From Escherichia coli (GTDB taxonomy: Bacteria > Pseudomonadota > Gammaproteobacteria > Enterobacterales > Enterobacteriaceae), in NCBI RefSeq assembly GCF_024223415.1, contig NZ_CP100500.1: DNA of 64,000 nucleotides, one strand, 5' to 3'. A model generated the notes under the pieces. It had not been told where the DNA came from, made no database searches, and saw only the letters and a program-made list of their open reading frames with translations. Of this stretch, positions 2,570-47,279 are shown piece by piece (positions within the stretch are counted from its first letter, which is position 1; the number at the start of each line of letters is the position of its first letter). The position numbers and the translations under genes were made by a program.

Positions 2570-2639
2570 GGCGGCGTGCCGGGCGTTCCGGTTACGGTTT
2601 TCCGTTCCCCTTACACCCGGCACCCACCGCCTTTTTTTT
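2570..2639 (+). terminator. Candidate hairpin plus T9 tract between gpM-like and gpL-like genes (attenuator or terminator)
   Basis: Imperfect inverted repeat ggcggcgtgccggg / ccggcacccaccgcc followed by ttttttttt at 2632-2639. Confidence 0.25.
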
Positions 2640-5187: not shown

Positions 5188-5844
5188 ATGGGGAAACTGA
5201 GATACCGTAACCTCGTTCCCGCTGAAGGAATGAGTAACATGTTTGTCAATATCCGGCTGGCAACCAGCCCGCAGGCAGTGAAGCGCATTGCCGCGCATGT
5301 GGGTAAGGAGCTGCGGCGCGTGAACCAGAGCCGGATGCGCGCCCAGAAAGCGCCGGACGGTTCGGTGTGGACACGCCGTAAACGCCGTATATCACGCCTT
5401 CAGGAGCGCATCAGCTTTATCTGGCAAAACCAGAACCGCACCCTGAAAAACTGGCATCACGGTTCAGGAAAATACGGCCAGACCATCACCGGCTGGGATG
5501 AAGACCGGAGCGGCATACGTACCTTTTACCGGAGTGATATCCTCCGTTTCCTTGAAATCAGGACACGCCGCATCAACCGTGACACCACAAAAACGGTGCC
5601 GATGTTTGCGAAGCTGCGCACGGCCCGTTATCTGAAAGTGAAGGCGGACGCATCAGGTGTGACGGTGGGCTACAGCGGCGTGGCGGCACGCATTGCCCGC
5701 GTTCACCAGTTCGGGGAGCGCGACCGGGTGGCCGCAGGGATGTATACGGATTATCCGGCCCGTGAACTTCTTGGAATAACACCGGCAGATGAACGACTTA
5801 TTCAGCGTATCATTATGGACAATATCGCGAGGGCTGTGGCATGA
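5188..5844 (+). CDS. Tail completion / virion morphogenesis protein (P2 gpS-like)
   Basis: 218-aa ORF with RBS; gene order R-S-V-W. Confidence 0.5.
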   Translation: MGKLRYRNLVPAEGMSNMFVNIRLATSPQAVKRIAAHVGKELRRVNQSRMRAQKAPDGSVWTRRKRRISRLQERISFIWQNQNRTLKNWHHGSGKYGQTITGWDEDRSGIRTFYRSDILRFLEIRTRRINRDTTKTVPMFAKLRTARYLKVKADASGVTVGYSGVAARIARVHQFGERDRVAAGMYTDYPARELLGITPADERLIQRIIMDNIARAVA

Positions 5845-6422
5845 ACGCGGAATTAATGCGCCTTATCAGCAACATCATCAGAACCGGCGTGATTTTCGAC
5901 GTGAACCCGCAGACCTGGGAGGTCCGGGTGCGCAGTGGCGGACTGGAGACAGGCTGGCTTCGCTGGAGCACCGCGCGGGCGGGCGCGTTCAGTGTCTGGG
6001 TGCCGCCAGCCACCGGTGAACAGGTGGCGTTCGTCTGTATCGGTGGTAATCCCGAAACCGCGATAATCATCGGCAGCCTCTGGAGCGATGATATCCCGGC
6101 ACCGGGCAGCACACTGAAGGAAATCATCATGACAGCACCGGACGGTGCGGTATTCCGCTACGATGCAGACGCCGGTGCACTGGAGGTTAAGGGGATTAAA
6201 ACAGCCAGCATTCAGGCCGACACGCGCATCACCCTGGACACGTCGGAGGTGGTGTGTACCCGCAAACTTATCACCGCCACCCTGGAGGTGCAGAACGGCG
6301 GCGAGATGCGCGGCAGCATATCCCACAGCGGCGGCAGCCTGACATCCAACGGTATCACCGTTCATACGCACACCCACGGTGGCGTCAGGACGGGCCCGGG
6401 CACCACGGGAGGCCCGCAATGA
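5841..6422 (+). CDS. Baseplate assembly/spike protein (P2 gpV-like)
   Basis: 193 aa; Gly-rich C-terminus HTHTHGGVRTGPGTTGGPQ; overlaps W start. Confidence 0.65.
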   Translation: MNAELMRLISNIIRTGVIFDVNPQTWEVRVRSGGLETGWLRWSTARAGAFSVWVPPATGEQVAFVCIGGNPETAIIIGSLWSDDIPAPGSTLKEIIMTAPDGAVFRYDADAGALEVKGIKTASIQADTRITLDTSEVVCTRKLITATLEVQNGGEMRGSISHSGGSLTSNGITVHTHTHGGVRTGPGTTGGPQ

Positions 6423-6772: not shown

Positions 6773-7669
6773 ATGCCTTCCGTTGACCTGTCACAGTTAC
6801 CGGAACCGGCCATCATCGCGCAGCCGGATTTTGAGTCCATCCTGGCAGACATTAAAACCATGATGGTGAGCTCCTTCCCGGAAGAATACCGCGCCGCCGT
6901 CACCCGTGCCCTTACTCTGGAATCCGAGCCATTGAACATCATTTCCCAGGCCATGGCCTTTCGTGAAATGCTGCTTCGCCAGCGCATCAATGAAGCCGCC
7001 CGCGCCTGCATGCTCAGCCACAGCCGGGGCAGTGACCTGGACAATCTGGCCGCCAACAACAACACCCGCCGCCTGGTCATTCATCCGGCCACTGATACCA
7101 CGGAAGCAGTGATGGAAAGCGACACATCGCTGCGTCTGCGTGCCCAGTCAGCCTGGGACGGCCTGAGTGTGGCCGGACCGTCCGGCGCGTATGAGTATTT
7201 TGCCCGGAGCGCAAGCGGTCTTGTCCGTGATGCGCGCGCCATCAGCCCGTCACCGGCCACAGTCACCGTCTCCATCCTGTCAGCAGACGGTGACGGCACC
7301 GCCGGTGAGGCGTTACTGAACACGGTGCGCACCGCCCTGAATGCCGAGAACGTGCGCCCGGTTGCCGACCGCCTGACTGTGCAGAGTGCTACCATCGTGA
7401 ACTGGGTAATGGAAGCGAAGCTGTATTTTTATCCAGGGCCGGAGTCTGAACCCATGCTTGCGGCCGCTGACGCCGCTTTCCGTGCATGGCTGGCAGACCA
7501 GGGCCGTATCGGTCAGGACGTGGCCCTGTCAGCCATCACTGCAGCGCTGCATGTTCACGGTGTCCAGCGCGTTGAGGTCATAAAACCCACGCAGAACATC
7601 ACCATCAGTGACACTCAGGCAGCCAGATGTACCACATTCAGCATCAGCGAAGGAGGACGCAATGAGTGA
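6773..7669 (+). CDS. Baseplate assembly protein J (P2 gpJ-like)
   Basis: 298-aa ORF following W. Confidence 0.7.
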   Translation: MPSVDLSQLPEPAIIAQPDFESILADIKTMMVSSFPEEYRAAVTRALTLESEPLNIISQAMAFREMLLRQRINEAARACMLSHSRGSDLDNLAANNNTRRLVIHPATDTTEAVMESDTSLRLRAQSAWDGLSVAGPSGAYEYFARSASGLVRDARAISPSPATVTVSILSADGDGTAGEALLNTVRTALNAENVRPVADRLTVQSATIVNWVMEAKLYFYPGPESEPMLAAADAAFRAWLADQGRIGQDVALSAITAALHVHGVQRVEVIKPTQNITISDTQAARCTTFSISEGGRNE

Positions 7670-11144: not shown

Positions 11145-11633
11145 TCACATCAGATCATTTACGCCGCTTACTGTGGTATTCCAGACCGAACTTAACTTCC
11201 CTTTCATTCCCGAAAGCATATCAGACACCGGTGACGAGGCCATACTCTCCCGCAAATCCTCATCACAGCGTTCCAGACTGACAGTGAACTCAATTTTTTT
11301 GGCCTTACCGTGGCGGTCAAGTTCGCTTCGCGTTGTGCGGACAGCCGTTATCACATACATGCCGTATATCTGCCCCACACCGTCAATCAGCGGCCATGGG
11401 CGACCAGTGTAAGCCTGCGTCGTTAAAAGGCTGAGGGAAACCTCACCGCCGGTAATTTCGGGATAAAGCACACCGGACAACGTGATCTGGTCGTCACCCG
11501 CCCCGATATACTGCCAGCTGGCCGAACGATTGATGCGTTCATTTTTAACGTGGCGCCAGGTTTTATTATGTTGCAGTTGTTGATGAGGCAGCGTACGCAA
11601 CTCAAAAACAAACATGCCGTAAATCATCATCAT
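11145..11633 (-). CDS. Tail protein U (P2 gpU-like)
   Basis: 162 aa; downstream of tape measure gene on minus strand. Confidence 0.6.
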   Translation of the reverse strand: MMMIYGMFVFELRTLPHQQLQHNKTWRHVKNERINRSASWQYIGAGDDQITLSGVLYPEITGGEVSLSLLTTQAYTGRPWPLIDGVGQIYGMYVITAVRTTRSELDRHGKAKKIEFTVSLERCDEDLRESMASSPVSDMLSGMKGKLSSVWNTTVSGVNDLM

Positions 11634-11644
11634 GCGAGGTACTC

Positions 11645-14600
11645 CTAATCTCTGTCACGGAAACTACCGACTGTCTGGCGGATACGGCGTTCCATTTCCG
11701 CACGGACGGCATCACCCACCATTTTTGCCAGTTCGCGCGGGTTTTGCGTGTGAACATCATGCAGGTGAATATGCAGTTCGCCAGTTAATCCCCATGGTGC
11801 CGCCTCACTCTGGCGCGGTCGGGGCGATGCGGGGGATATGGGCTGGCGCACAGCCTCAACCACCGGACGGGATGTTGCCGCCATCACTGGTGTCATTAGC
11901 GGGGAGAACGTCGGCATGACATCGTGAGTCATAACCGGTTTGATCACCGGCGGAACCACTGGCGTAATATTACCGGACAGTACCGGACGGACGACCGGAG
12001 GAATAACCGGCACATTATTCACGGACACCACCGGCTTCACGACCGGCGACACGTTCGCCGTGGTGGATATCAGCGGCGAAACACTGACAGGCGGTGGCGC
12101 TGGCAGCGGTGGCAACGAAGGCACACTGACCGACGGCACCTGCGGCAGTCTGACAGGTGGCTCACTGACACTACCCGGTAACAGGGAAGCTGCGCGGTTA
12201 AAGCGTTCCTCCTTCCACTCACCACGAACGGCCAGCGCTTCCGGCAGGTTTTTAAAGATAATATCGCCGGGACCAGCGCGTTTTTTCGCCTGTTTCGCCT
12301 CATCCAGCAGACCACCGGTGTTATCGACGATTTTGTTCAGGCGGCGCATAGTGCCGGTATTCTCCCCCGTCAGGGGTGGTTGCCCCCCTTTGGGTTTTTC
12401 GCCGTATTTTTTATCCTCGTCCTTTTTCGGCGGATTAATGACGTTAACATCCGCCAGAAGCATGGCAGCTTTCTCGTTCAGCAACTCCTTCTGTTTTAGT
12501 TCTTCCGCTTTTTTCCGGGCGCGCTCAACCGCTGACGGAATCAGCCCGAGTTTTTCCAGCACCCGGGTTAATGAGTCAATCAGCAGCGTAACCGGACCGG
12601 TCACCAGATTGCTGATAAACTCCCCGACCTTCTGCCCGAACGTCCGCCCGGCTTCCGTGCACTTGTCCAGCTCATCCTTTGTTGTGCTTACCGGCGCGAA
12701 CAAATCCACGAACCACTGCCACACACGCCCGATTGTCTGCCCGACATACTCAAACAATGGTCCCAGTGGTGCCACAGCCTCGCGCAGTGGCGTAAGCCCC
12801 TGCCACAGGCCGGACAAGAACCCGCCCACGACAGCCTTCAGCTGGTCCCAGTGCCGCCAGATAAGCACTGCCGCACCGACCAGTGTCGCCACCACAAGGC
12901 CCACCGGACTTAACAGAAAACCCAGCGCCCCGCCAAGTGCGCCCACCGCACCACTCACCATCCCCCACAGTGCGGGCAGACCTGACAGTCTGAGCGCCAG
13001 TATTCCGATACCGCGCCCCAGTGAAATCAGTGCGCCGCCAGGTGAAGTGAACGCAGCCAGCAGACCACCACGCAGCGCGCCAAGTCCCGCCTGCACACCA
13101 CGAAGCCGCCCCGCAACTACGCCCAGCAGTGCAGCAAACCGTCCGGCACCGGAGGTGATACCGACAAACAGCACGCGCCAGCCACCGATACCGCCCAGCG
13201 GACCACCGAGTACGCCGCGCAGCTGCGTCAGTAACGGCAGCGCACGACCGAGGCCGGATGTGCCGGTCAGCAGGGCAAACCCAAGACGCAGTTTTGCCAG
13301 CGGCCCCATCAACACACCAGTGGCAAGTGACAGCGCCCCCATGGCCGCAACCGCAGCCAGCAGTACACCACCGGCAATCAGCAGTTGTTTTGTCAGTTCA
13401 GGGTGCGCCTGAGCCAGCGCGGTGACTTTCGCAATAACCCGGGTGAACGACTGCGTGACAGAACGCAGCGGCCCGTCAACGAGGTCAGCGATACGGATAC
13501 GCAGTCCTTCCCATGCGCTGTTCAGTGATTTCAGGTCACCGTCCAGGTTATCAACCATAACACGGGCAGTCTGATTAAGTTCCCCGGTGGCCAGTTCAAT
13601 CTCCTGCGTAAGACGGGGAAGATTATTTTCCCCCGCCGCAGTGACAAGATTCATCAGGGAAACATAGGACTCCTGCCCGGCAATAGCCCTGAAAAAGGAG
13701 ACCTGCGCGGCATTACCGTATTTTCGGGTGGCCTGGTACAGCTCATTCAGGATATTTTCCATCCGGCGCATGTTCCCGTAAGCATCCTGCGTCTCCACGC
13801 CAAGCTCTTTCAGTGCCATTGCAGCGGCCTTCGGCGGATCAACCAGACGTGACAGACTGGCACGCAGCGCCGTACCTGCATCACTTCCACGGATCCCCAC
13901 ACTGCCAAGGACACCCGTCATGGCTGCCGCCTGTTCAAGGGACAGGCCAAGTGAAGCTGCAACCGGCCCCGTGTACTTCATGGTTTCACCCAGCGAACGG
14001 AGATCCGTATTGGTTCGTGTGAAGGTGGCGGCCAGCGTGTCACCCACGCGATCCATCTGGTCAGCGGACAGACCAAACTGTGTGAGGATATTCGAACTGA
14101 TATCGGCAGTCTGTCCCAGGTCCATCCCTGCAGCCATTGCCAGATCAAGCACGCCGGGTAGCGCCGCCTGTATGGCCTGTGGTGTGAAGCTGGCCATGGC
14201 AAGGAACGCCTGACCGCTGGCAGCATCACCGGCGGTAAACTGCGTTTCAGAGCCCAGCTTAATGGCCTGTTCGCGCAGCGCCTTAAACTGCGGACTGTTT
14301 TTGTCAATACGGGTCAGCGCCTGGACGCGCGACATCTCCTTACCAAAACTGACCGCCGGTTGCAGGAAACGTCCGGCCGCATAGCCGCCTGCCGCCGCCG
14401 TACCAACCGCCGTAAGTCCGACCGTTTTAAGTTTTCCCGCCGTCTCCTGAGCACGGGAATATTGCTGGCGTGCCTGCGTGACACGTGCCAGCGCCTGCCG
14501 TTCGCGTTCCAGCTGGTCGTTGTATTGCTGTGTTCGCCGTATGGCCTGTTGAATGGTGTTGTCACTGCCGGAAAGCGCAATACCGTGGCGCCGCAGCTCA

Positions 14601-14992
14601 CCACCCAGTTCGCGCATTCGCTGAACTTCACGCGCACGGACCTCATTGAGACGCTCAAGTTTGAGGCTCAAATCGTTCATCAGCTTTTTCTGTTTGTCAG
14701 ACAGCACGGTTCCGGCGCGCTGAATTTGCTGAAGTGCGCTTAACTGGCGTTGCGCCCTGACAATGCCGTTTCCGGCCTTGTTTGCAGCCTCGCGGGCGCG
14801 ATCAAATGAACGGGCGTGGCGTTCCAGGTTTTTGATCGCACCCTGCGTTCTCTGTATGGAGTCGCCAAGCTGGCCCATCATGCGACGGGCGTTTTCGGTG
14901 GGACGGGTCAGCCTGTCAACAGCGCTGAAGGCGACCCGTATATCAAGCGTTTTCATGCTCTGCGTTCCCGCTGCGAAGGGCCGCCCGCTCAC
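11645..14992 (-). CDS. Tail tape measure protein (P2 gpT-like), with Pro/Val-rich C-terminal repeats
   Basis: 1115-aa ORF, long helical Ala/Gly-rich regions; alternative ATG start at 14956. Confidence 0.8.
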   Translation of the reverse strand: MSGRPFAAGTQSMKTLDIRVAFSAVDRLTRPTENARRMMGQLGDSIQRTQGAIKNLERHARSFDRAREAANKAGNGIVRAQRQLSALQQIQRAGTVLSDKQKKLMNDLSLKLERLNEVRAREVQRMRELGGELRRHGIALSGSDNTIQQAIRRTQQYNDQLERERQALARVTQARQQYSRAQETAGKLKTVGLTAVGTAAAGGYAAGRFLQPAVSFGKEMSRVQALTRIDKNSPQFKALREQAIKLGSETQFTAGDAASGQAFLAMASFTPQAIQAALPGVLDLAMAAGMDLGQTADISSNILTQFGLSADQMDRVGDTLAATFTRTNTDLRSLGETMKYTGPVAASLGLSLEQAAAMTGVLGSVGIRGSDAGTALRASLSRLVDPPKAAAMALKELGVETQDAYGNMRRMENILNELYQATRKYGNAAQVSFFRAIAGQESYVSLMNLVTAAGENNLPRLTQEIELATGELNQTARVMVDNLDGDLKSLNSAWEGLRIRIADLVDGPLRSVTQSFTRVIAKVTALAQAHPELTKQLLIAGGVLLAAVAAMGALSLATGVLMGPLAKLRLGFALLTGTSGLGRALPLLTQLRGVLGGPLGGIGGWRVLFVGITSGAGRFAALLGVVAGRLRGVQAGLGALRGGLLAAFTSPGGALISLGRGIGILALRLSGLPALWGMVSGAVGALGGALGFLLSPVGLVVATLVGAAVLIWRHWDQLKAVVGGFLSGLWQGLTPLREAVAPLGPLFEYVGQTIGRVWQWFVDLFAPVSTTKDELDKCTEAGRTFGQKVGEFISNLVTGPVTLLIDSLTRVLEKLGLIPSAVERARKKAEELKQKELLNEKAAMLLADVNVINPPKKDEDKKYGEKPKGGQPPLTGENTGTMRRLNKIVDNTGGLLDEAKQAKKRAGPGDIIFKNLPEALAVRGEWKEERFNRAASLLPGSVSEPPVRLPQVPSVSVPSLPPLPAPPPVSVSPLISTTANVSPVVKPVVSVNNVPVIPPVVRPVLSGNITPVVPPVIKPVMTHDVMPTFSPLMTPVMAATSRPVVEAVRQPISPASPRPRQSEAAPWGLTGELHIHLHDVHTQNPRELAKMVGDAVRAEMERRIRQTVGSFRDRD

Positions 14993-15469
14993 GCCAGGCG
15001 ACCACCTCGCCGGGATCCATCAGGAAGATTTCAGCGGGAGACCAGTTGAAAATAACGGCGATATCCGCCACAAAGTCTTCAATGTGCTCAAAGGGCACGA
15101 CGGTTATCAGCCTGCCGTCGCCGCCCCGCTCTTCCCGCCAGAGTCCTGACCGGCCAAAAAATTAACCGCCACCCCGCACAGCTGAATAAAATCAGCGGAC
15201 CCCATGCGCTTAAGCAGAACCTCGTCCAGTCGCGGCGAAGTGACGCGCGGGAGTAACTCAAACATCGCGTCCGTTTTCATGTTCAGCACGTCAAGCAGTG
15301 ACAGCCCGCGCAGTGAACCGGCCTGCTGTACAGCAGGCGTGATTTCCACATACGTGATTTTTTTGTTACCGAGCACAAGGGGCGTTTTCAGCGTCACGCC
15401 GCGCTCACTGGTCACGTCCGCCGCATCAGCACCGTCAGTAACAGGGGCAACAACCGGATTTTCTTTCAT
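14943..15469 (-). CDS. Tail assembly chaperone E+E' (predicted -1 frameshift product)
   Basis: After slip at T TTT TTG the -1 frame stays open for about 65 codons to TGA near 14943, overlapping tape measure start. Confidence 0.4.
15107..15469 (-). CDS. Tail assembly chaperone E (P2 gpE-like)
   Basis: 120-aa ORF between tube and tape measure genes. Confidence 0.6.
   Translation of the reverse strand: MKENPVVAPVTDGADAADVTSERGVTLKTPLVLGNKKITYVEITPAVQQAGSLRGLSLLDVLNMKTDAMFELLPRVTSPRLDEVLLKRMGSADFIQLCGVAVNFLAGQDSGGKSGAATAG
15155..15161 (-). other. Slippery heptamer T TTT TTG (programmed -1 frameshift site)
   Basis: Plus strand caaaaaa = minus ttttttg, in phase X XXY YYZ with codons N-F-L of chaperone E. 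Confidence 0.5.
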
Positions 15470-16038: not shown

Positions 16039-17321
16039 TAAGCACCTCCAAGCGTCGCAAATGCAGGACCAAAGAATTCATCAGTAAACGTCTGGTAAAG
16101 TTCCATATCCTCAAGCGGCGGAACGGGCGTGTACTTGTAGCGGATACGCACGCGTCCCTGACGAAGTTCCGTGGTGCTGTTATCCACCACGTCATACCAG
16201 CACTCCGCACCAATGAGACGTCCTGACGTAACCAGCGCATCCAGTTTTGCGCGAATTGCGCTTAACACGTCTTTCACATTAGCAGGGGTCAGCGGGGCAT
16301 CAATCGTTTCAAACTGCGCTTCCGCAATGGAATCAGCCAGCACCTGAGCGGTTCGCGTGTACACCTCAAAGATATACGCCTTCGTTTCCGGCGTACGGTT
16401 GCCCCAGAAGCGGAAACCGTTACGGCAAATGATGGTAGTGATTTCCTTGTTGTTGAGATTGTTGGCATCGCTGTCTTCGGACTGAAGGGACCAGAACACC
16501 GGGCTGGAAATACCCAGCACATTTGTTACCGGCACGTTGGACAGCGATTTATGCCAGCCCTGTTCGTGGTCAATACGTGCACGTAAACCGCAGGCGTACG
16601 CCGCAGCCGGGAAGACCTCATTAGCGCCGGATTTCGGGTTATAGGCGATGAAGTCAGGCCAGAGCAGCATAAGTTCGCGCTCGTTAAATCTGGCGCGGTA
16701 GCTGATTGCATCAGCGGGCTTCTTGCAGTTGTGACAGCCCGCGTAGACAAATGCGCGAAGTTTTTCTGCAATTACACACAGGGATTTTGTGACAGCTTCA
16801 GTATCCAGTCCGGGAGCTGCGATGATGCGCGGACGGTAACCGATGGCATCATCCTGTTCAGCTATCAGAAGTGCATACATACCGGTATAATTACCGTCGC
16901 CATCCGTGCCACCAATGACATACTGGTCCTGCGTTTTGTGTGGGTATACAGGATGTGCATCTTCAGACTCATCAATACCAAAAAATGCCCTGTCTTCAGG
17001 ATCCAGATGACCGAATGATGTAACTCCTGTATCCGGGGCGCCCTGAGAACTGGTATCAGGAACGCGCACCACAATCACCTTCGTGCTCACCTGGTCGGCG
17101 ACAGCCTTAAGCGATTTGTAAAGCGTCCCCTTTGTGCCGGCCTTACCCAGCACATCACTGACGCGGGTCAGCAGTGTGGGTTTGTTCAGCGGGAACAGAG
17201 TTTCATCCGCGTCATCTGCCGTAGCCACAATACCAATAACACTGGAATCCACATCATTAATGGCGGTGGCAAGGCCGGTACTTTCCCTTACGCGCGCACC
17301 ATGAAAGCGTGTTTCACTCAT
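16038..17321 (-). CDS. Tail sheath protein (P2 gpFI-like)
   Basis: 427 aa from ATG at 17321 (MSETRFHGARV...); track ORF extends further upstream without support. Confidence 0.8.
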   Translation of the reverse strand: MSETRFHGARVRESTGLATAINDVDSSVIGIVATADDADETLFPLNKPTLLTRVSDVLGKAGTKGTLYKSLKAVADQVSTKVIVVRVPDTSSQGAPDTGVTSFGHLDPEDRAFFGIDESEDAHPVYPHKTQDQYVIGGTDGDGNYTGMYALLIAEQDDAIGYRPRIIAAPGLDTEAVTKSLCVIAEKLRAFVYAGCHNCKKPADAISYRARFNERELMLLWPDFIAYNPKSGANEVFPAAAYACGLRARIDHEQGWHKSLSNVPVTNVLGISSPVFWSLQSEDSDANNLNNKEITTIICRNGFRFWGNRTPETKAYIFEVYTRTAQVLADSIAEAQFETIDAPLTPANVKDVLSAIRAKLDALVTSGRLIGAECWYDVVDNSTTELRQGRVRIRYKYTPVPPLEDMELYQTFTDEFFGPAFATLGGA

Positions 17322-18869: not shown

Positions 18870-18980
18870 GAACAATAATCAGGTTGAGAGGACATCATAA
18901 GGCAAGTAGATTAACGGCAGATACTTTCCCGCAACCACGGGCAAGTATTTAATTATCCATGATGAAATATGACCTAAATT

Positions 18981-19014
18981 GTTTTTTGCCCGCCGGAAAG
19001 CGGGCATTTTTTTA
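18981..19014 (+). terminator. Intrinsic terminator, candidate prophage attR core
   Basis: gcccgc cggaaa gcgggc hairpin flanked by T runs on both sides; same element recurs 7 more times downstream. Confidence 0.6.
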
Positions 19015-19227
19015 TTCTTTTGTGGTTATGGGGTCATCAGGAACCACGTGCAGATTATATTTTTGTTTTTTTGGCGTTCCTCCGGCAGCAACGAGTTCAT
19101 CAATAAGACACTGACACGCCTGAACATCCCGGGCATGTCTTAGTTTCACCTTTATTGATTTAACCTTATCCTCACCGGAGGAGAAATGCAGTTCAATCTC
19201 AATATCGTTTCTTCGGAACAATCTCAT
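19012..19227 (-). CDS. Hypothetical small protein (71 aa) in module M
   Basis: ATG at 19227 preceded by AGGGGG; intact only in this copy, truncated or degenerate in the other two M copies. Confidence 0.25.
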   Translation of the reverse strand: MRLFRRNDIEIELHFSSGEDKVKSIKVKLRHARDVQACQCLIDELVAAGGTPKKQKYNLHVVPDDPITTKE

Positions 19228-19398
19228 ACGCCCCCTGAATATATCAGAAATACTAGTATCGAAAAATGAGAAAACAGTTAGACAGGAGAAACATATTAAC
19301 ACAAATCATTTATACCTATAGATGAAATTATAATTTCATTCATGAATATGATAGATAACTATATTGTGAACAAAATGAAAAATGGCTAAATTAAAAAT

Positions 19399-19478
19399 GG
19401 GCATGGAGGAATGCCCGGTTATCAATATAATGTGACGTAGATCATTGTTTTGCCCGCCGGAGAGCGGGCATTTTTTTT
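19399..19478 (+). ncRNA. Candidate small RNA S1
   Basis: Promoter-like TTGTGA(19364)-N17-TAAATT(19387), about 80-nt unit with internal hairpin gggcatggaggaatgccc, ends in intrinsic terminator. Confidence 0.35.
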
Positions 19479-19678
19479 GCGCCTGCCATCGAGGCGCCTT
19501 CCCTGGCGCACACAAAGCAGCCCTGATTTTCCATGAAAACTTCAGGGTTGAGCTGCGGGCACAAAGTGAGTAGATTAGCTACGGGTACCTCCCCCTGACA
19601 ACAGGAAGGGTGTCCATTATCCATGATATACAAACGAAAAGTCTTGTTTTTTGCCCGCCGAAGCGCGGGCATTTTTTT
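19479..19678 (+). ncRNA. Candidate structured RNA U1 (about 200 nt)
   Basis: Bounded by two terminators; internal hairpins gcgcct..aggcgc, ccctga..tcaggg, ccttcc..ggaagg; 4 copies in window. Confidence 0.3.
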
Positions 19679-19723
19679 ATGCATCAGACAAGATACAGCC
19701 CACCCCAACTGACACCTGAAATA

Positions 19724-19752
19724 TTGCCGCAACAAAAAGAAACAGTTAAATT
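19724..19752 (+). promoter_or_regulatory. Sigma70-like promoter for hok1 transcript
   Basis: TTGCCG-N17-TAAATT, about 145 nt upstream of hok1 ATG. Confidence 0.4.
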
Positions 19753-19804
19753 ACGCGCGGGTGCCTTTCGGCTGATGGCCGGAGGGAAAACCTGAAGGCC
19801 GGAT

Positions 19805-20038
19805 GTGGAAAGGCCCCGGAAAACATTTCTGTTTAACCGAGGCCCTAACCGCATTACCTTGACAAGTGAAAGGTTAGCGCCTCTCCGGAAAAGGAGCAAG
19901 TGCTATGTCGCAAAAATCGCTTACGGCCATCACGTTCTGCGTGACGGCAATCCTCATCATCTGGATATTGCACGGTTCGCTGTGCGAAATACGGATGAGC
20001 TTCTGGGGAGCGGAGTTTGCGGCGTTCTTACAATGTAA
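19805..20038 (+). CDS. mok-like overlapping reading frame
   Basis: 77-codon frame overlapping hok1 in a different frame, as in hok/mok loci. Confidence 0.3.
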   Translation: MERPRKTFLFNRGPNRITLTSERLAPLRKRSKCYVAKIAYGHHVLRDGNPHHLDIARFAVRNTDELLGSGVCGVLTM

Positions 20039-20045
20039 GAAGTAA
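19905..20045 (+). CDS. Hok/Gef-family type I toxin (46 aa)
   Basis: MSQKSLTAITFCVTAILIIWILHGSLCEIRMSFWGAEFAAFLQCKK: TM helix plus SLCEI..AAFL.CK signature; AAGGAG 8 nt upstream. Confidence 0.6.
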   Translation: MSQKSLTAITFCVTAILIIWILHGSLCEIRMSFWGAEFAAFLQCKK

Positions 20046-20133
20046 GGAAACCGCGACGGGGGAGCAATCCCCCGTCAATCGGTTGCCAGGGTAAGGTCGA
20101 TAAGGCACCCTATCTCACAGACATGAACAAACA

Positions 20134-20167
20134 AACCCGCAGCATAAAAACTGCGGGTTTTCTTTTT
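20134..20167 (+). terminator. Intrinsic terminator after hok1
   Basis: cccgcag cataaaaa ctgcggg followed by ttttcttttt. Confidence 0.5.
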
Positions 20168-20571
20168 GGTGTCCTCACCGACTTGAAACAGTGATCAGAC
20201 TATAAGACAAAGCCCGCAATGTTGCGGGCTTACTCTACCTCTCGAAAATGTGGTCACTGCGTGGACATACGCTGATACAAATCCTTTATATCAATAAATT
20301 AAATCTTTGTTTTTTTCATCAACAATGATTTAACCTTATCCTCACCGGAGGAGAAATGCAGTTCAATCTCAATATCGTTTCTGTGGAACAGCCTCATAAG
20401 ACAACCTCCTGAATTCATCAGAAACACAGTCAACTGAAAACCAGAAAGCAGACAAACAGTGGACACACATTAATACAAATCATTTATACCTATAGATGAA
20501 ATTGCAGTTTCATCTATAACATGACAGGTAACAATATTGTGAAAAAACTCAAAACTCGTTAGATTAAAGAC

Positions 20572-20651
20572 GGACAGAGCAATGCTACTTTATCAATAAC
20601 ATGTAACCTGTACTTCCTTATTTTGCCCGCCGAAGCACGGGCATTTTTTTT
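20572..20651 (+). ncRNA. Candidate small RNA S2
   Basis: TTGTGA(20537)-N17-TAGATT(20560), terminator at 20625-20651; central region differs from S1. Confidence 0.3.
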
Positions 20652-20849
20652 GCGCCTGCCATCGAGGCGCCTTCCCTGGCGCACACAAAGCAGCCCTGAT
20701 TTTCCATGAAAACTTCAGGGTTGAGCCAAAAGCACAAAGACAGTAGATTAACCACGGGTGCCTTCCACCTGACAACAGGAAGGGTGTCCAGTATCAATGA
20801 CAGACAACTCACATTGCTGTTTTGCCCGCCGGAAAGCGGGCATTTTTTT
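20652..20849 (+). ncRNA. Candidate structured RNA U2
   Basis: Copy of U unit ending in terminator 20821-20849. Confidence 0.3.
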
Positions 20850-21219
20850 ATTCTTTTGTGGTTATTGGGTCATCAGGAACAACATGCAGATTATGCTTTG
20901 ATTTTTTTGGTGTTATTACAGCAGCAACGAGTTTATTAATAAGACACTGACATGCCTGAACATCCCTGACATATCATAATATCACTTTATTTTTTTAGCT
21001 TGTCCTTTCTGGAGCAGAAATATCTCAACATCGTTTCTGTGGAACAACCTCATTTGCCCTTGAATGTATCATAAATATCAGCATCGGAAAACCAACAGCA
21101 ATACAGAAGAAACATGTTAATGCAAATCACTTATACCTATAGATGAAATTACAGTTTTGTTCATAAATATGATAAGTAACTATATTGTGAATAAAATGAA
21201 AACTAGCTAAATTAAACGT

Positions 21220-21300
21220 GGGCATGGTGGAATGCCTCGTAATCAATAATACATGATCCGTACTTCCTTGTTTTGCCCGCCGGAAAGCGGGCATTTTTTT
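21220..21300 (+). ncRNA. Candidate small RNA S3
   Basis: TTGTGA(21185)-N17-TAAATT(21208), hairpin gggcatggtggaatgcc, terminator to 21300. Confidence 0.3.
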
Positions 21301-21497
21301 GGCGGTTACCATCGCCTCACCTTCCTGGTTCACATGAAGCAACCCTGATTTTCCATGAAAACTTCAGGGTTGAGACAAAAGCACAAAGACAGTAGATTAA
21401 CCACGGGTACCTTCCACCTGACAACAGGAAGGCTGTCCAGTATCAATGACAGACAACTCACATTGCTGTTTTGCCCGCCGGAAAGCGGGCTTTTTTT
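21301..21497 (+). ncRNA. Candidate structured RNA U3
   Basis: Copy of U unit, terminator 21469-21497. Confidence 0.3.
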
Positions 21498-21698
21498 GGC
21501 AGTTATCATAGCCGCACCTTCCTGGCACATATGAAGCAACCCTGATTTTCCATGAAAACTTCAGGGTTGAGACAAAAGCACAAAAACAGTAGATTAACCA
21601 CGGGTGCCTGCCACCTGACAACAGGAAGGGTGTCCATTATCCATGATATACAAACGAAAAGTCTTGTCTTTTGCCCGCCAAAGCGCGGGCATTTTTTT
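21498..21698 (+). ncRNA. Candidate structured RNA U4 (hok-associated subtype)
   Basis: Copy of U unit with the same 3' end as U1, terminator 21671-21698. Confidence 0.3.
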
Positions 21699-21909
21699 AT
21701 GCATCAGACAAGATACAGCCCACCCCAACTGACACCTGAAATATTGCCGCAACAAAAAGAAACGGGTGCCTTTCGGCTGATGGCCGGAGGGAAAACCTGA
21801 AGGCCGGATGTGGAAAGGCCCCGGAAAACATCTGTGTTTAACCGAGGCCTGACCCTTCCTACCGTGACAAGTGGAAGGTTAGCGCCTCTTTGTAAAAGGA
21901 GCAAGCGCT

Positions 21910-22050
21910 ATACCGCAAAAAACGATTATTGTTGGCATTTTATGCCTGACAATAACCCTGGTCATCTGGATGGTCCACGATTCGTTATGTGAATTCAGCT
22001 TTGATATCTGGGGAGCGCGTTTTGCGGCGTTCTTGCAGTGTAAACCGTAA
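21910..22050 (+). pseudogene. Hok-family toxin remnant: start codon ATA, promoter -10 deleted
   Basis: Frame encodes PQKTIIVGILCLTITLVIWMVHDSLCEFSFDIWGARFAAFLQCKP after AAGGAG, but first codon is ATA and an in-frame TAG lies 10 codons upstream. Confidence 0.55.
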
Positions 22051-22200
22051 GAAACCGCAGCGGGGGAGAAATTCCCCGCTATCCGGTTGTTGGGGTGGGC
22101 CGATATGGCGCCCTTTCCCTGTAGAGACAAAACAAAAAACCAGATTTGCCCGCCATTGAGAGGGCTTTTTTGTCACCCTCACCAGTGAGGGCATCATCAT

Positions 22201-26133: not shown

Positions 26134-29100
26134 TTAGTCAAACGGCGGTGGGGCCAGCACTTCACGATTACCGTTGTGCCCCTGTTCGCTGACAATCCCC
26201 TGCGCTTCCATCTGTTCGATAATACGCGCTGCACGGTTATAACCAATGCGGAACTGACGCTGTACGCCAGAAATTGACGCTTTGCGTTTTTCAGTGACAA
26301 ACTGCACCGCCTGATCGAACAACGGATCCAGTTCTTCAGCGCCATCGAAACCACCCGCACCACCTTCGCTTTCGCTGTCGGAGGTGATGCCATCAACATA
26401 CTGTGGGCGACCACGCGCTTTCCAGTCCTGCACCACGGCATGAACTTCCTGATCGCGAACAAAAGCACCATGGACACGTACCGGCAACGTGGAGTTCGGC
26501 CCAGAGTAGAGCATATCCCCCATACCCAGCAGTGATTCCGCGCCAGCCTGATCAAGAATGGTACGTGAGTCAATCTTACTGGATACGGTAAAGGCGATAC
26601 GGGTCGGAATATTCGCTTTAATCAGACCAGTAATAACATCAACCGATGGACGCTGAGTTGCCAGTACGAGGTGGATACCCGCGGCACGGGCTTTTTGCGC
26701 CAGACGTGCTATCAGCTCTTCCACTTTTTTACCTACCGTCATCATCAGGTCGGCAAATTCATCCACCAGCACCACAATGTATGGCTCTTTTTTCAGCACC
26801 GGATGCTGAGCATCCATACTGTCACCCGGCTTCCAGTACGGGTCTGGAATCGGACGCATCATGCGATCGGCTTCAGCAATTTTTTCGTTATAACCCGCCA
26901 GATTACGCACACCCAGCGCAGACATCAGTTTATACCGACGCTCCATCTCGTTAACACACCAGCGCAGCGCGTTGGCGGCATCTTTCATATCAGTAACGAC
27001 TTCCGTTAACAGATGCGGAATGCCTTCATAAACCGAAAGCTCCAGCATTTTCGGGTCGATCATGATGAAACGCACATCTTCTGGCTGCGCTTTATAAAGC
27101 ATGCTCAGGATCATCGCGTTCACACCGACAGACTTACCGGAACCGGTAGTCCCCGCAACCAACAAGTGCGGCATTTTCGCCAGATCGGCAACCACCGGCT
27201 CACCGGCGATATCTTTACCCAGCACCACGGTTAATGGCGACGGATTATCGCGGAATTTGGCGTTATCCAATACTTCGCGCAGATAAACGGTTTGTCGTTT
27301 TTTATTCGGTAACTCCAGACCTACATAGGGTTTGCCAGGAATAACTTCAACGACACGCACCGCCACCGTCGAAAGTGAACGGGCAAGGTCCCGTGACAAG
27401 TTAGAAATGCGCGCCGCTTTTACGCCCGGTGCCAGGTTAAGTTCAAAGCGAGTGATAACCGGCCCCGGAGAGTAATTGACGACATCGGCTTTAATACGGA
27501 AATCAGCCAGACGTGCTTCCACCAGACGCGCCATTTGTTCAAGCGCAAAGGTATCTACCGGCTCCACTTCGCTCGGCGGCGGTGTCAGCAAATCCAGAGA
27601 AGGCAGCGGCGTCGTCGGTTTATGCAACGGACGGCTGTCGCCATTACGCATCAACAGCGGATGAAGCAGAGTATCCTGCGGCTGTGGCGCAACTGGCTGT
27701 TGCGGCTGCTGATATTGCGGCTGTGGTGCAGCCGATTGTTGTGGCTGCTGATACTGCGGCTGCGGCGCAACTGGCTGTTGCGGCTGCTGATATTGCGGCT
27801 GCGGTGCAACCGGTTGTTGCGGCTGCTGATATTGCTGCTGCGGTGCAACCGGTTGTTGCGGCTGCTGATATTGCTGCTGTGGCGCAACCGGCTGTTGTGG
27901 CTGCTGATACTGCTGCTGCGGTGCAACCGGTTGTTGCGGCTGCTGTACAGGTTCAACAATTGGCGTAAACAACGGTTCGTGTGGACCATCATCCAGCAAC
28001 GCTTTCATTGGCGAAAATTCAAAATCATCCAGCGAGAACGGATTCGCCCCAGCCGGTTGTTCGCCGGAATAACGTTGTTGTTGAGTTTGCGCAAACTGAC
28101 GAGCCAGTTCAGCCTCTGCCGCAGCATCTGCATCTTCTGCGTTTACGGGCACATCATGTTGATACTGTTCGCCATAGCGTTGCTGCTGTGTCTGGGCGAA
28201 CTGACGTGCCAGTTCATCCTGCTGCATCGCATCGATTTCATCATCGTTATACTGATCGCCAGAATCGTACTGATTGCGCTGGGCTTCACGGGCTTTTTCT
28301 TCCGCCGCACGCTGTGAGGGCAGCTTAATACCGTAAGACGCCAATTCACGACGAGTTGGCACGCGGATACGTTTCGGTCGTGGCAACTGCGGGCCAATCC
28401 CCTCTTTGACCTGCGGACGCGGTCCACCGCTATTTGCCAGACTGAAGACTGGCGCGGCAACGGTTGCGGCAGCCCCCGTCGCCAGTGTCGCTTTTTTCAC
28501 GCCAGATGCCAGCGGAGAAACAGCGGCAGCGGCTTCTACTGGAGGTACTGCTGCAACAGAAGGTGCTTTCAGCGAAGATTTGATCGGTTCTGGTTCTTTA
28601 ACCGGTTCTGGAATCGGTTGATACCAGGCCGCAAGTTGTTCACGTTCACGGGCTCGCTTCTCTTCCACTTCTTCAAAGTAGTAAAGCGGCGGACGCGCGG
28701 GTTTTGTCTCTTCTACAACGGGTTCAGGCTCCACAATAGGCTGCTGTTCAACAGGTTGCTGCTGTTGGTACAACGGCTCCTGAGCGGCTGGCTGCTGATA
28801 AGTTTGCTCAGTCTGGTATGTAGACTGTGGAGCAAAAGTGGATTGCTGCTCTTCGGCTTGCCAGGCGTTACCTGCCACCGGTTGTTCTGGCGCAGGGGCA
28901 TAATACGGCTGTTGCGCAGGCTGTTCCGGCGCAGTTGCGTAATACGGTTGCTGAACAGGTTGTTCCGCCGCAGGAGCGTAGTAAGGTTGTTGCGCAGGTT
29001 GTTCAGCTGCAGGTGCATAATACGGCTGCTGCGGCTGTACTGGTTGTTGCAGCGGCTCATTATATTGCACTGCAGGCTGCGCATATTGTGACTGCTGTGG

Positions 29101-30869: not shown

Positions 30870-31296
30870 TATTATTGTCTCTCTGTATTCCTTCCCTACT
30901 CCTGTCTGACCCTGAAACATCACTGTTCAGAGTCGCTACCCGTCACGATAGACCGAAATCATGAAGATTCACGGCGCGCAATGCCTGGGTCTACGGTGAG
31001 AAGACCGTTGCCTTGTGGCAGCTATCGACATCACGAATGGCGTCTGTCCACGCCATACGTAGATTTCACTAGCACGGTAAACATGGTATTTACATGCATG
31101 GTTATGCGCATATAAGAATACTGTTTTTTTTCTTCCTCGAATGTTTTCGCAAAACACCAGGGGATTGTCAAAGCAAAACATCGATTTTTAGTACAACATG
31201 CCAGATATTCATTAACAGGGGCGTTTATTCATCATTTAATCGGCTTATAAAGCGGGAAATTTAAGTAGCAGAGGTGATAATGACGGGAGAATTTGA

Positions 31297-37492: not shown

Positions 37493-37580
37493 GGTGAGGT
37501 GTCCGAGTGGCTGAAGGAGCACGCCTGGAAAGTGTGTATACGGCAACGTATCGGGGGTTCGAATCCCCCCCTCACCGCCA
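37493..37580 (+). tRNA. serW: tRNA-Ser (anticodon GGA)
   Basis: 88-nt GGTGAGGTGTCCGAGTGGCTGAAGGAGCACGCCTGGAAAGTGTG...GGTTCGAATCCCCCCCTCACCGCCA with long variable arm; downstream of infA as for serW. Confidence 0.93.
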
Positions 37581-47100: not shown

Positions 47101-47279
47101 CCTGCCTGTACAGCGCTGTCAGCAGCCGGCGCGGGCGCTGACATGACTGCAGCAAGGGACAGTGCGGCAGCCACGCCCGCACGCTTCCCCCGCGTGCGGG
47201 CCAGTTCAGAGGCCACCGCGAAGGTGCCCGTGACGTGATTCCATACCAGCCGGTAACTGGTGTTCAGATGTCGCTTCAT
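44160..47279 (-). CDS. flu: Antigen 43 (Flu/Cah) self-associating autotransporter
   Basis: 1039 aa; signal peptide, Thr/Gly-rich beta-helix repeats, C-terminal beta-barrel ending QATLNVTF. Confidence 0.9.
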   Translation of the reverse strand: MKRHLNTSYRLVWNHVTGTFAVASELARTRGKRAGVAAALSLAAVMSAPAPAADSAVQAGDTVNGGTLTNHDNQIVFGTASGMTISTGLELGPDSEENNGGQWIDNGGTASNTTVTANGRQVVMTGGTATDTVIHAGGGQSLRGQSVNTTLNGGEQWVHQGGRAVGTVINRDGYQTVKPGAVATDTVVNTGAEGGPDSDNDATGQLVAGMALSTTVNRNGRQVIAGEGMAGETTIQAGGDQSVHGHALSTTLNGGNQYVHQGGVAQNTVINDGGWQVVKTGAVAENTTINQKGKLQVNAGGKATAVTQNTGGALVTGTAATVSGTNRAGHFSVADGKADGVLLESGGRLDVLNGHTATDTRVDDGGTLAVLTGGTATTVSMGRGGMLLADSGATVSGQYDGGGAFSIGSGHASGLALGKGSAFTLKAGDSARDTTVNGGQLTAQGGTLTGTTTLNNGATLTLSGKTVNDGTLVTREGDALLQGGVLTGNGRVEKSGSGTLTVSNTTLTRNAVSLNEGALTLADSTVTTDIIARRGTTLSLTGSTVLTGAIDPTDVTLTSGATWNIPDNATVKSVVDELRHAGKINFVSTRSGAFTPATLTVKNLRGQNGSITLRVRPDLAQHNADRLVIDGGSATGKTTLNLVNAGNSASGLATTGKGIQVVEAINGATTEEGAFVQGNPLQAGVYDYTLTRDGDQSWYLRSETRYRAEVPLYASMLTQGMDYDRILAGSRSHQSDVNGENNSVRLSIQGGHLGHGNNGGIVRGATPESSGSYGFVRLEGDLLRTEVAGMSVTAGVYGAAGHSAVDVRDDNGSRAGTVRDDAGSLGGYLNLVHTSSGLWADLVAQETRHSMKASSDSNDFRARGRGWLGSLETGLPFSITDHLMLEPQLQYTWQGLSLDDGQDNAGYVKFGHGSAQHVRAGFRLGSHNDMSFGEGSSSRDTLRGSARHSVSELPVNGWVQPSVIRTFSSRGDMSMGTAAAGSNMMFSPSQNGTSLDLQAGLEARVRENITLGVQAGYARSVSGSSAEGYNGQATLNVTF

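Follow-up and report, generated by a model that had tools for sequence, protein, structure and literature searches.

A hairpin rich in G+C and followed by a run of T residues lies inside the late operon of a P2-like prophage on the Escherichia coli contig NZ_CP100500.1 (assembly GCF_024223415.1), between the genes for gpM and gpL, and it raises the question of what a structure resembling a terminator does upstream of essential late genes. The prophage was analysed within a stretch of 64,000 nucleotides, hereafter the window, for which an earlier note, made from the sequence alone, had pointed to the hairpin and suggested an attenuator or a site of RNA processing. We identify the intergenic gap between M and L (2552–2654), by sequence comparison, as the prophage copy of a conserved cis-acting RNA element carried on the late mRNA of Peduoviridae. 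We consider it an evenly balanced question whether this conserved mRNA element doubles, in the present lineage, as a leaky intrinsic terminator.

The defining features of the element are its position between M and L, a first hairpin (H1) with a CCC-containing loop, a base stem ending in GG, an unpaired C, an upper stem, an unpaired YCA and a closing arm that begins with CC, and all of them are present at 2555–2631. The parts of the element and its immediate 3′ flank are as follows:

2555–2567, + strand: hairpin H1, CTGAC and GTCAG arms around a CCC loop (read from the sequence)
2570–2574, + strand: 5′ arm of the base stem P1, GGCGG (from predicted folds)
2575, + strand: unpaired C, 5′ side of a 1×3 internal loop
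2576–2583, + strand: 5′ arm of the upper stem (stem P2), GTGCCGGG, paired with 2616–2623
2584–2615, + strand: variable apical part with pyrimidine-rich internal loops and an ACGG-UUUU-CCGU tip (from predicted folds)
2616–2623, + strand: 3′ arm of the upper stem, CCCGGCAC
2624–2626, + strand: unpaired CCA, 3′ side of the 1×3 internal loop
2627–2631, + strand: 3′ arm of P1, CCGCC, paired with 2570–2574
2632–2639, + strand: T8 run directly 3′ of the stem, which also forms a U-rich stretch shortly before the gpL ribosome-binding site
2643–2648, + strand: gpL Shine-Dalgarno sequence AAGGAG (duplex with the anti-Shine-Dalgarno sequence, −6.3 kcal/mol)

The long imperfect hairpin comprises 62 nt (2570–2631), and the AA at 2568–2569 can lengthen P1 by pairing with the first two U residues of the run. 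The imperfect inverted repeat and T tract that had been reported from the sequence are both real: an inverted repeat search returned 22-nt arms with 73% complementarity, and the segment 2568–2641 has a predicted folding energy of −39.4 kcal/mol, against −20.5 ± 2.9 kcal/mol for 200 dinucleotide shuffles (z = −6.44). None of the 200 shuffles folded as well, so that a folding energy too weak for such a role, a possibility that the earlier note had raised, was not found. The tract has eight T residues rather than the nine counted at first, and its placement 20 bp upstream of the gpL start was only approximate, as it begins 23 nt and ends 15 nt before the ATG. Folding of the whole M–L gap gave −47.6 kcal/mol (z = −5.0), and the site is among the top 15 of 25,574 sliding 66-nt segments from both strands of the 64 kb (mean −15.4, standard deviation 5.6 kcal/mol).

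Relatives of gpL were gathered from IMG/VR and from GenBank phages with single-protein searches, and the M–L junction was compared across 58 IMG/VR loci (gpL 34–99% identical), 88 further loci and a number of named phages; the search with the gpL of P2 yielded near-identical copies only. The M–L gaps of P2 (99 nt), 186 (92 nt) and P88 (101 nt) each fold independently into the same architecture of two hairpins. At nearly every locus, a gap of 87–123 nt contains H1, with its CCC-containing loop, and a long hairpin of 48–69 nt, which consists of a base stem of about 6 bp, a 1×3 internal loop and an upper stem of 6–11 bp. The full core was found in Burkholderia phage KS5, Ralstonia phage YO077_2 (Aresaunavirus), Shewanella phage M16-3, Pseudomonas phage phiCTX, Acidovorax phage Alfacinha1 and the A+T-rich Mannheimia phage 1127AP1. 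The apical sequence differs between clades, yet the total length of the hairpin is kept within 48–69 nt, and the helical length amounts to about 20–29 base-pair equivalents in all clades despite the turnover of sequence. The distance from the end of the stem to the AUG of L is 13–37 nt (median 21, from 92 distinct versions) and that from the M stop codon to H1 ranges from 3 to more than 30 nt among relatives. Short single-stranded motifs also recur, with CGA before H1 and ACCU after the long hairpin.

The unpaired nucleotides of the internal loop are the most constant part of the element. The core was located in 93 distinct intergenic sequences; 92 of them have C as the 5′ loop base, and for the 3′ loop 81 have CCA and 11 have UCA. 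A descriptor scan that imposed no loop identity also returned C/CCA as by far the commonest combination (219 matches), in the sense orientation of gpL. The two P1 pairs adjoining the loop are G-C in all 34–35 distinct cores, and the resulting pattern GG-C...YCA-CC is nearly invariant. The invariance of these unpaired nucleotides would imply a role common to the family, exerted through specific recognition by a nuclease or another protein and without need of the U-run.

The stems themselves covary. P1 occurs in compensated variants (GGCGG/CCGCC, CGCCGG/CCGGCG, AAGGGG/CCCCUU, GGAUGG/CCAUCC and UGACGG/CCGUCA), and the upper stems of the window and of P88 differ by a double compensatory swap, from CCGG/CCGG to GCGG/CCGC. 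Over 34 distinct cores, 12 of the 14 pairs have changed on both sides, including all eight pairs of the upper stem, and the covariation score was 0.70, against 0.17 in shuffles (none of 500 reached 0.70) and at most 0.14 when the partners were slid; because the cores had been selected for pairing, the percentage of paired positions is partly a product of construction, whereas the diversity of pair types is not. H1 covaries as well (GCGC/GCGC in P2, GCUC/GAGC in 186, CGUGC/GCACG and CGCC/GGCG in the loci L112 and L140, and GCGU/ACGC in the Mannheimia phage), with four of four pairs changed on both sides in a model-based alignment, and the pair counts from that alignment agree with the result from the 34 cores. 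As alignment of the whole gap with MAFFT and RNAalifold mis-registered the phiCTX-like group, anchoring on the internal loop and a covariance model were used instead.

The covariance model was trained on 16 enteric sequences only, the window among them. This enteric model nevertheless finds the element at the M–L junction of Burkholderia, Ralstonia, Acidovorax, Pseudomonas and Shewanella phages (E < 0.01). The Mannheimia, HP1 and K139 versions were not detected with it; the full core of the Mannheimia version was seen by inspection. In the 64-kb window, the model gave a single significant match (65.7 bits, E = 2e-13), which corresponds to one of its own training sequences. No extra copy was found in the window with the descriptor scan and the covariance model. 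An antisense descriptor match at 30992–31057 was rejected as a second copy, since it contains a mismatch and has no support from the covariance model. With the same two methods, the other genomes were found to contain one copy each, in every case at the M–L junction. When viral contigs were scanned with the H1 motif (CCGAGCG-N0-2-CCCCGCG) for copies in other genomic contexts, the matches listed were mostly chance ones in G+C-rich DNA; nine of the listed matches had the hairpin core, of which eight were genuine and all at M–L junctions, and the ninth (L276) was due to chance.

A few junctions depart from this pattern. The gap is missing, and M and L overlap, in a P2-like element of Zymomonas (L071, 4 nt) and in HP1 (8 nt). 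HP1 and K139 have a long hairpin at the junction that lacks the C/CCA core. In HP1 (L240 2440–2600; NC_001697, about 16440–16600), the annotated M reading frame (281 aa) crosses this hairpin and extends 8 nt into the start of L; either the hairpin is translated or the M stop codon has been mis-set. An apparent deletion variant in a group of Burkholderia phages, with a gap of 69 nt and no hairpin, proved to reflect a spurious out-of-frame reading frame in G+C-rich DNA, and the element there is intact.

The setting of the element in the prophage bears on how it may act. The window starts inside a P2-like E. coli prophage that is 99.7–100% identical to prophages in E. coli isolated from chickens and humans; its DNA identity to phage P88 (Xuanwuvirus) is about 73%. 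The genes around the element are:

start of the window, + strand: scaffold gene O, 3′ end only
633–1772, + strand: capsid gene N
1775–2551, + strand: reading frame of gpM, the small terminase subunit (from the list of open reading frames, and so named in the RefSeq annotation of identical E. coli prophages)
2549–2551, + strand: gpM stop codon, TAA
2655–3149, + strand: gpL, head completion/stabilisation protein (head–tail adaptor Ad1), ATG at 2655–2657 (from the list of open reading frames and RefSeq annotation)

The 103-nt gap between M and L thus holds the entire element. The gpL of the prophage has 75% amino-acid identity with that of P88, and it is followed on the same strand by X, the lysis genes and genes for tail completion, baseplate and fibres. 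From O to the tail-fibre assembly gene, a single unbroken block of about 11.3 kb runs on the + strand, which confirms the first description of the hairpin as lying within the late operon between gpM and gpL. As had been argued there, a full terminator at this position would cut off essential downstream genes, and the operon context supports an attenuator or processing site as the more plausible role. Any termination must be partial, because the downstream late genes form a continuous block and the 15 nt before L leave no room for a promoter.

The favoured mechanism, a conserved mRNA element that also terminates leakily in this lineage, would operate at the U-run. There, during transcription of the run by RNA polymerase, GGCGG and CCGCC would close beneath the upper hairpin, which would have folded by then, and a fraction of the transcripts would be released as O-N-M mRNA (scaffold, capsid and small terminase) ending in a nuclease-resistant 3′ hairpin. 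Other polymerases would read through, allowing expression of L, X, the lysis genes and the tail genes, and the net effect would be an attenuator setting the ratio of head-shell to downstream transcripts. In this prophage, the hairpin would thus probably serve both as a leaky terminator and as a 3′-end stabiliser. We infer termination, its leakiness and stabilisation from the anatomy of the site, in which a G+C-rich stem is followed by U8 with no spacer. The stable G+C-rich stem–loop and the U tract (about 5 or more of 8 residues, within 0–2 nt of the stem) expected of an intrinsic terminator are both there, and only four T-runs of eight occur on the + strand of the window. The homologous hairpin of Mannheimia phage 1127AP1 was independently labelled a rho-independent terminator by its depositors, on the basis of MFold.

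Several observations weigh against this mechanism. A U-run of at least six residues beside the stem is present in only 5 of the 92 distinct versions (the lineage of the window, the P88 lineage and one metagenomic phage), U4 was found in 26, and 46 have no run longer than a single U. The run is U8 here and in strain GF60, U6–7 in the P88 lineage and U4 in P2, and there is no U-tail in 186, phiCTX, KS5 or the Ralstonia and Mannheimia phages. What the family conserves therefore cannot be termination, and the terminator proposed from the sequence of the window fits the U8 anatomy of this lineage without extending to most of its relatives; by sequence comparison, selection keeps the hairpin and its unpaired bases, and the terminator tail is lineage-specific. 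The hairpin is also atypical for a terminator, with a length of 62 nt, several internal loops and, five pairs up from the U-run, a bulge of 3 nt, rather than a compact stem of about 5–20 pairs with a loop of 3–8 nt. A consensus terminator scan of the window, as had been proposed as a check, did not call the site, because it allows loops of 3–8 nt only. Enteric members generally have U3–U8 just upstream of the L Shine-Dalgarno sequence, so the T-run may serve translation rather than termination, or may have grown out of a translational feature. No transcript data for this or any related phage were found in the literature searched. Finally, the antisense RNA of the site folds at least as well as the sense RNA (−45.4 kcal/mol), and the same site ranks top in the 66-nt sliding scan when the antisense strand is folded.

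Because the antisense RNA folds at least as well, the strand is not decided by energy alone. However, the wobble intermediates at 12 well-paired positions, read on the sense strand, comprise 13 G·U against 2 A·C; this asymmetry favours an RNA of the sense strand, although the sequences are related and it amounts to support rather than proof. The same strand is favoured by the constant location of the element between the stop and start codons of one operon, and it is also favoured by the presence of the U-run 3′ of the stem on the coding strand. Two annotations of the Mannheimia phage vB_MhM_1127AP1 may be mentioned here: a "promoter similar to the MhaA1-PHL101 consensus" is also placed on the homologous M–L hairpin (L069 1016–1057; NC_047750 6035–6076), and no U-run follows this hairpin despite its terminator label.

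A role in termination here and the other roles that might be proposed for the element (cleavage by RNase P or RNase III, translational control, and a function at the DNA level) are not mutually exclusive. It is possible, if somewhat doubtful, that the pair of hairpins is an undescribed cis-RNA of Peduoviridae recognised sequence-specifically, a punctuation mark where the late mRNA would be split or gated by a conserved host enzyme or a phage protein; if this were true, it would fix the stoichiometry of the head-shell genes relative to everything downstream, and the U-run would be a secondary, lineage-specific addition. By analogy, RNase P is the candidate enzyme that can be named most specifically, with a helix and CCA that would mimic tRNA-His as its substrate. 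P4 is a satellite of P2, so there is a precedent for RNase P substrates of phages and satellites in the same ecosystem. The nearly invariant unpaired CCA or UCA lies directly 3′ of an upper helix of 7–11 bp, with the invariant unpaired C on the 5′ side, and a putative cut 5′ of this helix, treated as an 8-bp acceptor of the tRNA-His type, would end the O-N-M mRNA just after H1 and provide the mRNA from L onward with a protective 5′ hairpin. Such a cut would give both hairpins a role and would not require the U-run. The E. coli enzyme cleaves hairpin-like substrates other than tRNA that lack a T-loop (4.5S RNA, phi80 M3, P4 CI and P1/P7 C4 RNA), and it cuts tRNA-His at −2/−1, leaving an 8-bp stem (PMC5499578). 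However, the covarying P1 stem pairs the leader with the trailer, an arrangement that should hinder cleavage and that leaves the conservation of P1 unexplained. The element has no T-loop-like feature, its CCA is internal with no free discriminator base, ARAGORN finds no tRNA-like gene at the site, and the Rfam models for C4 and tRNA give no match, and we regard processing by RNase P as unlikely. Processing or retroregulation by RNase III, for which T7 R1.1-type intercistronic sites and lambda sib are the comparison systems, would consist of a putative cut in a helix of about two turns, which would separate the O-N-M mRNA from the downstream message and set the stabilities of both. A helix of about 20 bp or more with an internal loop, as in RNase III signals, is present in the element. 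The helical and hairpin lengths given above are kept in all clades, the asymmetry of the internal loop is conserved, the U-run is again unnecessary, and the enzyme is present in every host group. RNase III sites are not known, however, to require an invariant C/CCA loop flanked by G-C pairs, and cleavage by this enzyme would not explain H1 or the conserved flanking motifs, CGA ahead of H1 and ACCU behind the stem; we rate this role as quite unlikely.

Control of the translation of L was also considered, in which the structured gap would couple or tune initiation at the L start: the compact hairpin would bring ribosomes from the M stop codon close to the start, or would provide a standby or S1-binding platform, and the U-run would act as an enhancer. 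The Peduoviridae that lack the gap have overlapping M and L genes, the classical arrangement for coupling (the Zymomonas element and HP1), and the Shine-Dalgarno sequence of L, the only gene for which this was calculated, is weak or absent (ΔG above −5 kcal/mol) in 55 of the 92 versions, including those of Burkholderia, Ralstonia and phiCTX-like phages; for KS5, the genome paper gives L no more than a poor ribosome-binding site. The U3–U8 run directly upstream of the Shine-Dalgarno sequence in enteric members and the constrained spacing of 13–37 nt between stem and AUG point in the same direction. The variable distance between the M stop codon and H1 (3 to more than 30 nt) does not, and the sequence-specific C/CCA core is left unexplained; this role too seems improbable to us. 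A function at the DNA level, as a cruciform or single-strand hairpin for replication priming or as a module boundary favouring recombination between the head genes and the rest, must be rated as very improbable. Either strand folds, and the antisense strand is at least as stable in the window, but the compensatory changes keep pairing rather than sequence, the wobble intermediates are of the kind expected on the sense strand (13 G·U against 2 A·C), and the element occurs as a single copy per genome, always between a stop and a start codon. Replication modules vary among P2-like phages, whereas the element travels with the structural operon. In a 2026 survey, gpL had the most discordant phylogeny among the P2-like hallmark genes paired with gpP, and gpM–gpN was the most concordant pair (PMC13100340); the discordance of gpL is compatible with recombination near the M–L junction.

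P2 and 186 are textbook phages, for whose late operons promoters and end-of-operon terminators have been taken as a sufficient account. The element described here separates the genes for scaffold, capsid and terminase from the remaining virion genes and the lysis genes, it is conserved from the A+T-rich Mannheimia phage to those of Burkholderia and Pseudomonas (66% G+C), and it points to an unrecognised post-transcriptional control step in P2-like late operons. Annotation of the hairpin as a terminator, as in Mannheimia 1127AP1, and its omission, as in P2 and 186, probably both miss its main role. The question is directly testable in P2, in which the bulged C and the CCA correspond to positions 5929 and 5973–5975 of NC_001895. 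The covariance model also offers a ready marker for P2-like head modules.

Some further features of the window were recorded. Downstream in the same prophage, the S-like (virion morphogenesis, 5188–5844) and V-like (baseplate, 5841–6422) genes overlap by 4 nt, and the interval with a terminator, orf30 and the P_V promoter that P2 has after S is missing. At 11630–14960 (L242 23633–26956), the tail tape-measure gene is annotated as incomplete, with a missing C-terminus, in an identical RefSeq prophage, and about 1.1 kb between this gene and the neighbouring tail gene contains no annotated gene; a disrupted gene or an insertion is possible. Just past the Ogr-like gene of the prophage, the region 18900–22100 contains diverged direct repeats (families of 70–230 nt, 2–4 copies, spacing of about 1170–2005 nt). 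A cluster of T7–T8 runs is found there because each repeat unit bears a strong terminator (GCCCGCCGG..CGGGCATTTTTTTT). A gene of the Hok/Gef family is annotated by RefSeq at about 19905–20045, and the patch looks like several hok/sok-type toxin–antitoxin modules in series. The 5′ part of gpL has, on the antisense strand, a near-perfect hairpin of 40 nt (2683–2723); a 76-nt segment folds at about −40 kcal/mol (z = −2.6, against z = 0 for the sense strand), the hairpin leans on G·U pairs in a stretch rich in GGTG and GTCG that encodes an Asp-rich segment, and it is probably incidental to the coding sequence. Further 66-nt segments with very stable folds (−37 to −40 kcal/mol) were located at 47140–47235 (−), 14960–15030 (−), 7245–7310 (−) and 27801–27866 (+). 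The chromosomal part of the window includes an Rfam match to IS102 RNA (88 bits, 49751–49947, −), and a tRNA-Ser(GGA) gene is found at 37493–37580 (+).

Rfam 15 (4227 models) has no family that matches the element in the window or in seven relatives, the best hits for these sequences being chance-level matches to miRNA hairpins (E 0.3–0.9, far below the gathering score). The GenBank records of P2 (NC_001895) and 186 leave the space between M and L without annotation while marking an attenuator and terminators elsewhere. A full-text literature search returned no description of an M–L hairpin in P2-like phages; older subscription papers, including the 1991 report of the P2 head-gene sequence, lay outside this search and may contain an early mention. 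Several known types of element were rejected. A put/nut-type antiterminator RNA would lie close behind the operon promoter, ahead of the terminators that it suppresses, whereas the element is about 3.4 kb into the operon, after three genes, and no boxA-like sequence was seen. A Chi-like reading, prompted by GGTGG in the antisense strand, fails on two mismatches to GCTGGTGG and on the covariation of the structure. Only GGCGG is in common with an ops/RfaH site, a K-turn would need tandem G·A pairs, which are absent, and a late promoter has no room, no promoter-like site having been called by the scan.

Closer likenesses exist to systems in which a hairpin punctuates a polycistronic message. The intercistronic palindromes of the REP/BIME type, as between malE and malF, are also imperfect and could likewise shield upstream mRNA from 3′ exonucleases and partly terminate transcription; the M–L element differs in being single-copy and inherited with the M–L junction, with no dispersed repeat family, and a dispersed palindrome of this type was ruled out by the single copy in 64 kb and in each phage genome. 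T7 R1.1 and lambda sib, like the M–L element, have a helix of roughly two turns between cistrons of a polycistronic phage mRNA, interrupted by an asymmetric internal loop, and putative processing of the M–L element would similarly leave a stabilising 3′ hairpin on the upstream message; there is, however, no sequence similarity, and the M–L loop is only 1×3 and sequence-invariant. The 4.5S precursor, P4 CI and P1/P7 C4 RNAs (PMC5499578) resemble the element in having no T-loop and in a long helix with an unpaired CCA-type sequence behind it, whereas the CCA of the M–L element is internal, precedes a conserved stem pairing with the 5′ leader, and lies within an mRNA rather than a small RNA precursor. 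With the phage intergenic cis-regulatory motifs of the kind collected in Rfam, it shares covariation, conserved unpaired nucleotides and a fixed genomic context. Intra-operon attenuators, such as the putative lysC attenuator and the O-operon terminator of P2 (NC_001895), also combine a G+C-rich stem–loop and a U-run with distal genes that are still needed; the M–L element differs from these in its 62-nt hairpin, its conserved 1×3 loop, the second hairpin upstream and the lack of a U-run in most homologues. We class the feature in the window as a putative attenuator resembling an intrinsic terminator, built on a conserved RNA motif that had apparently not been described.

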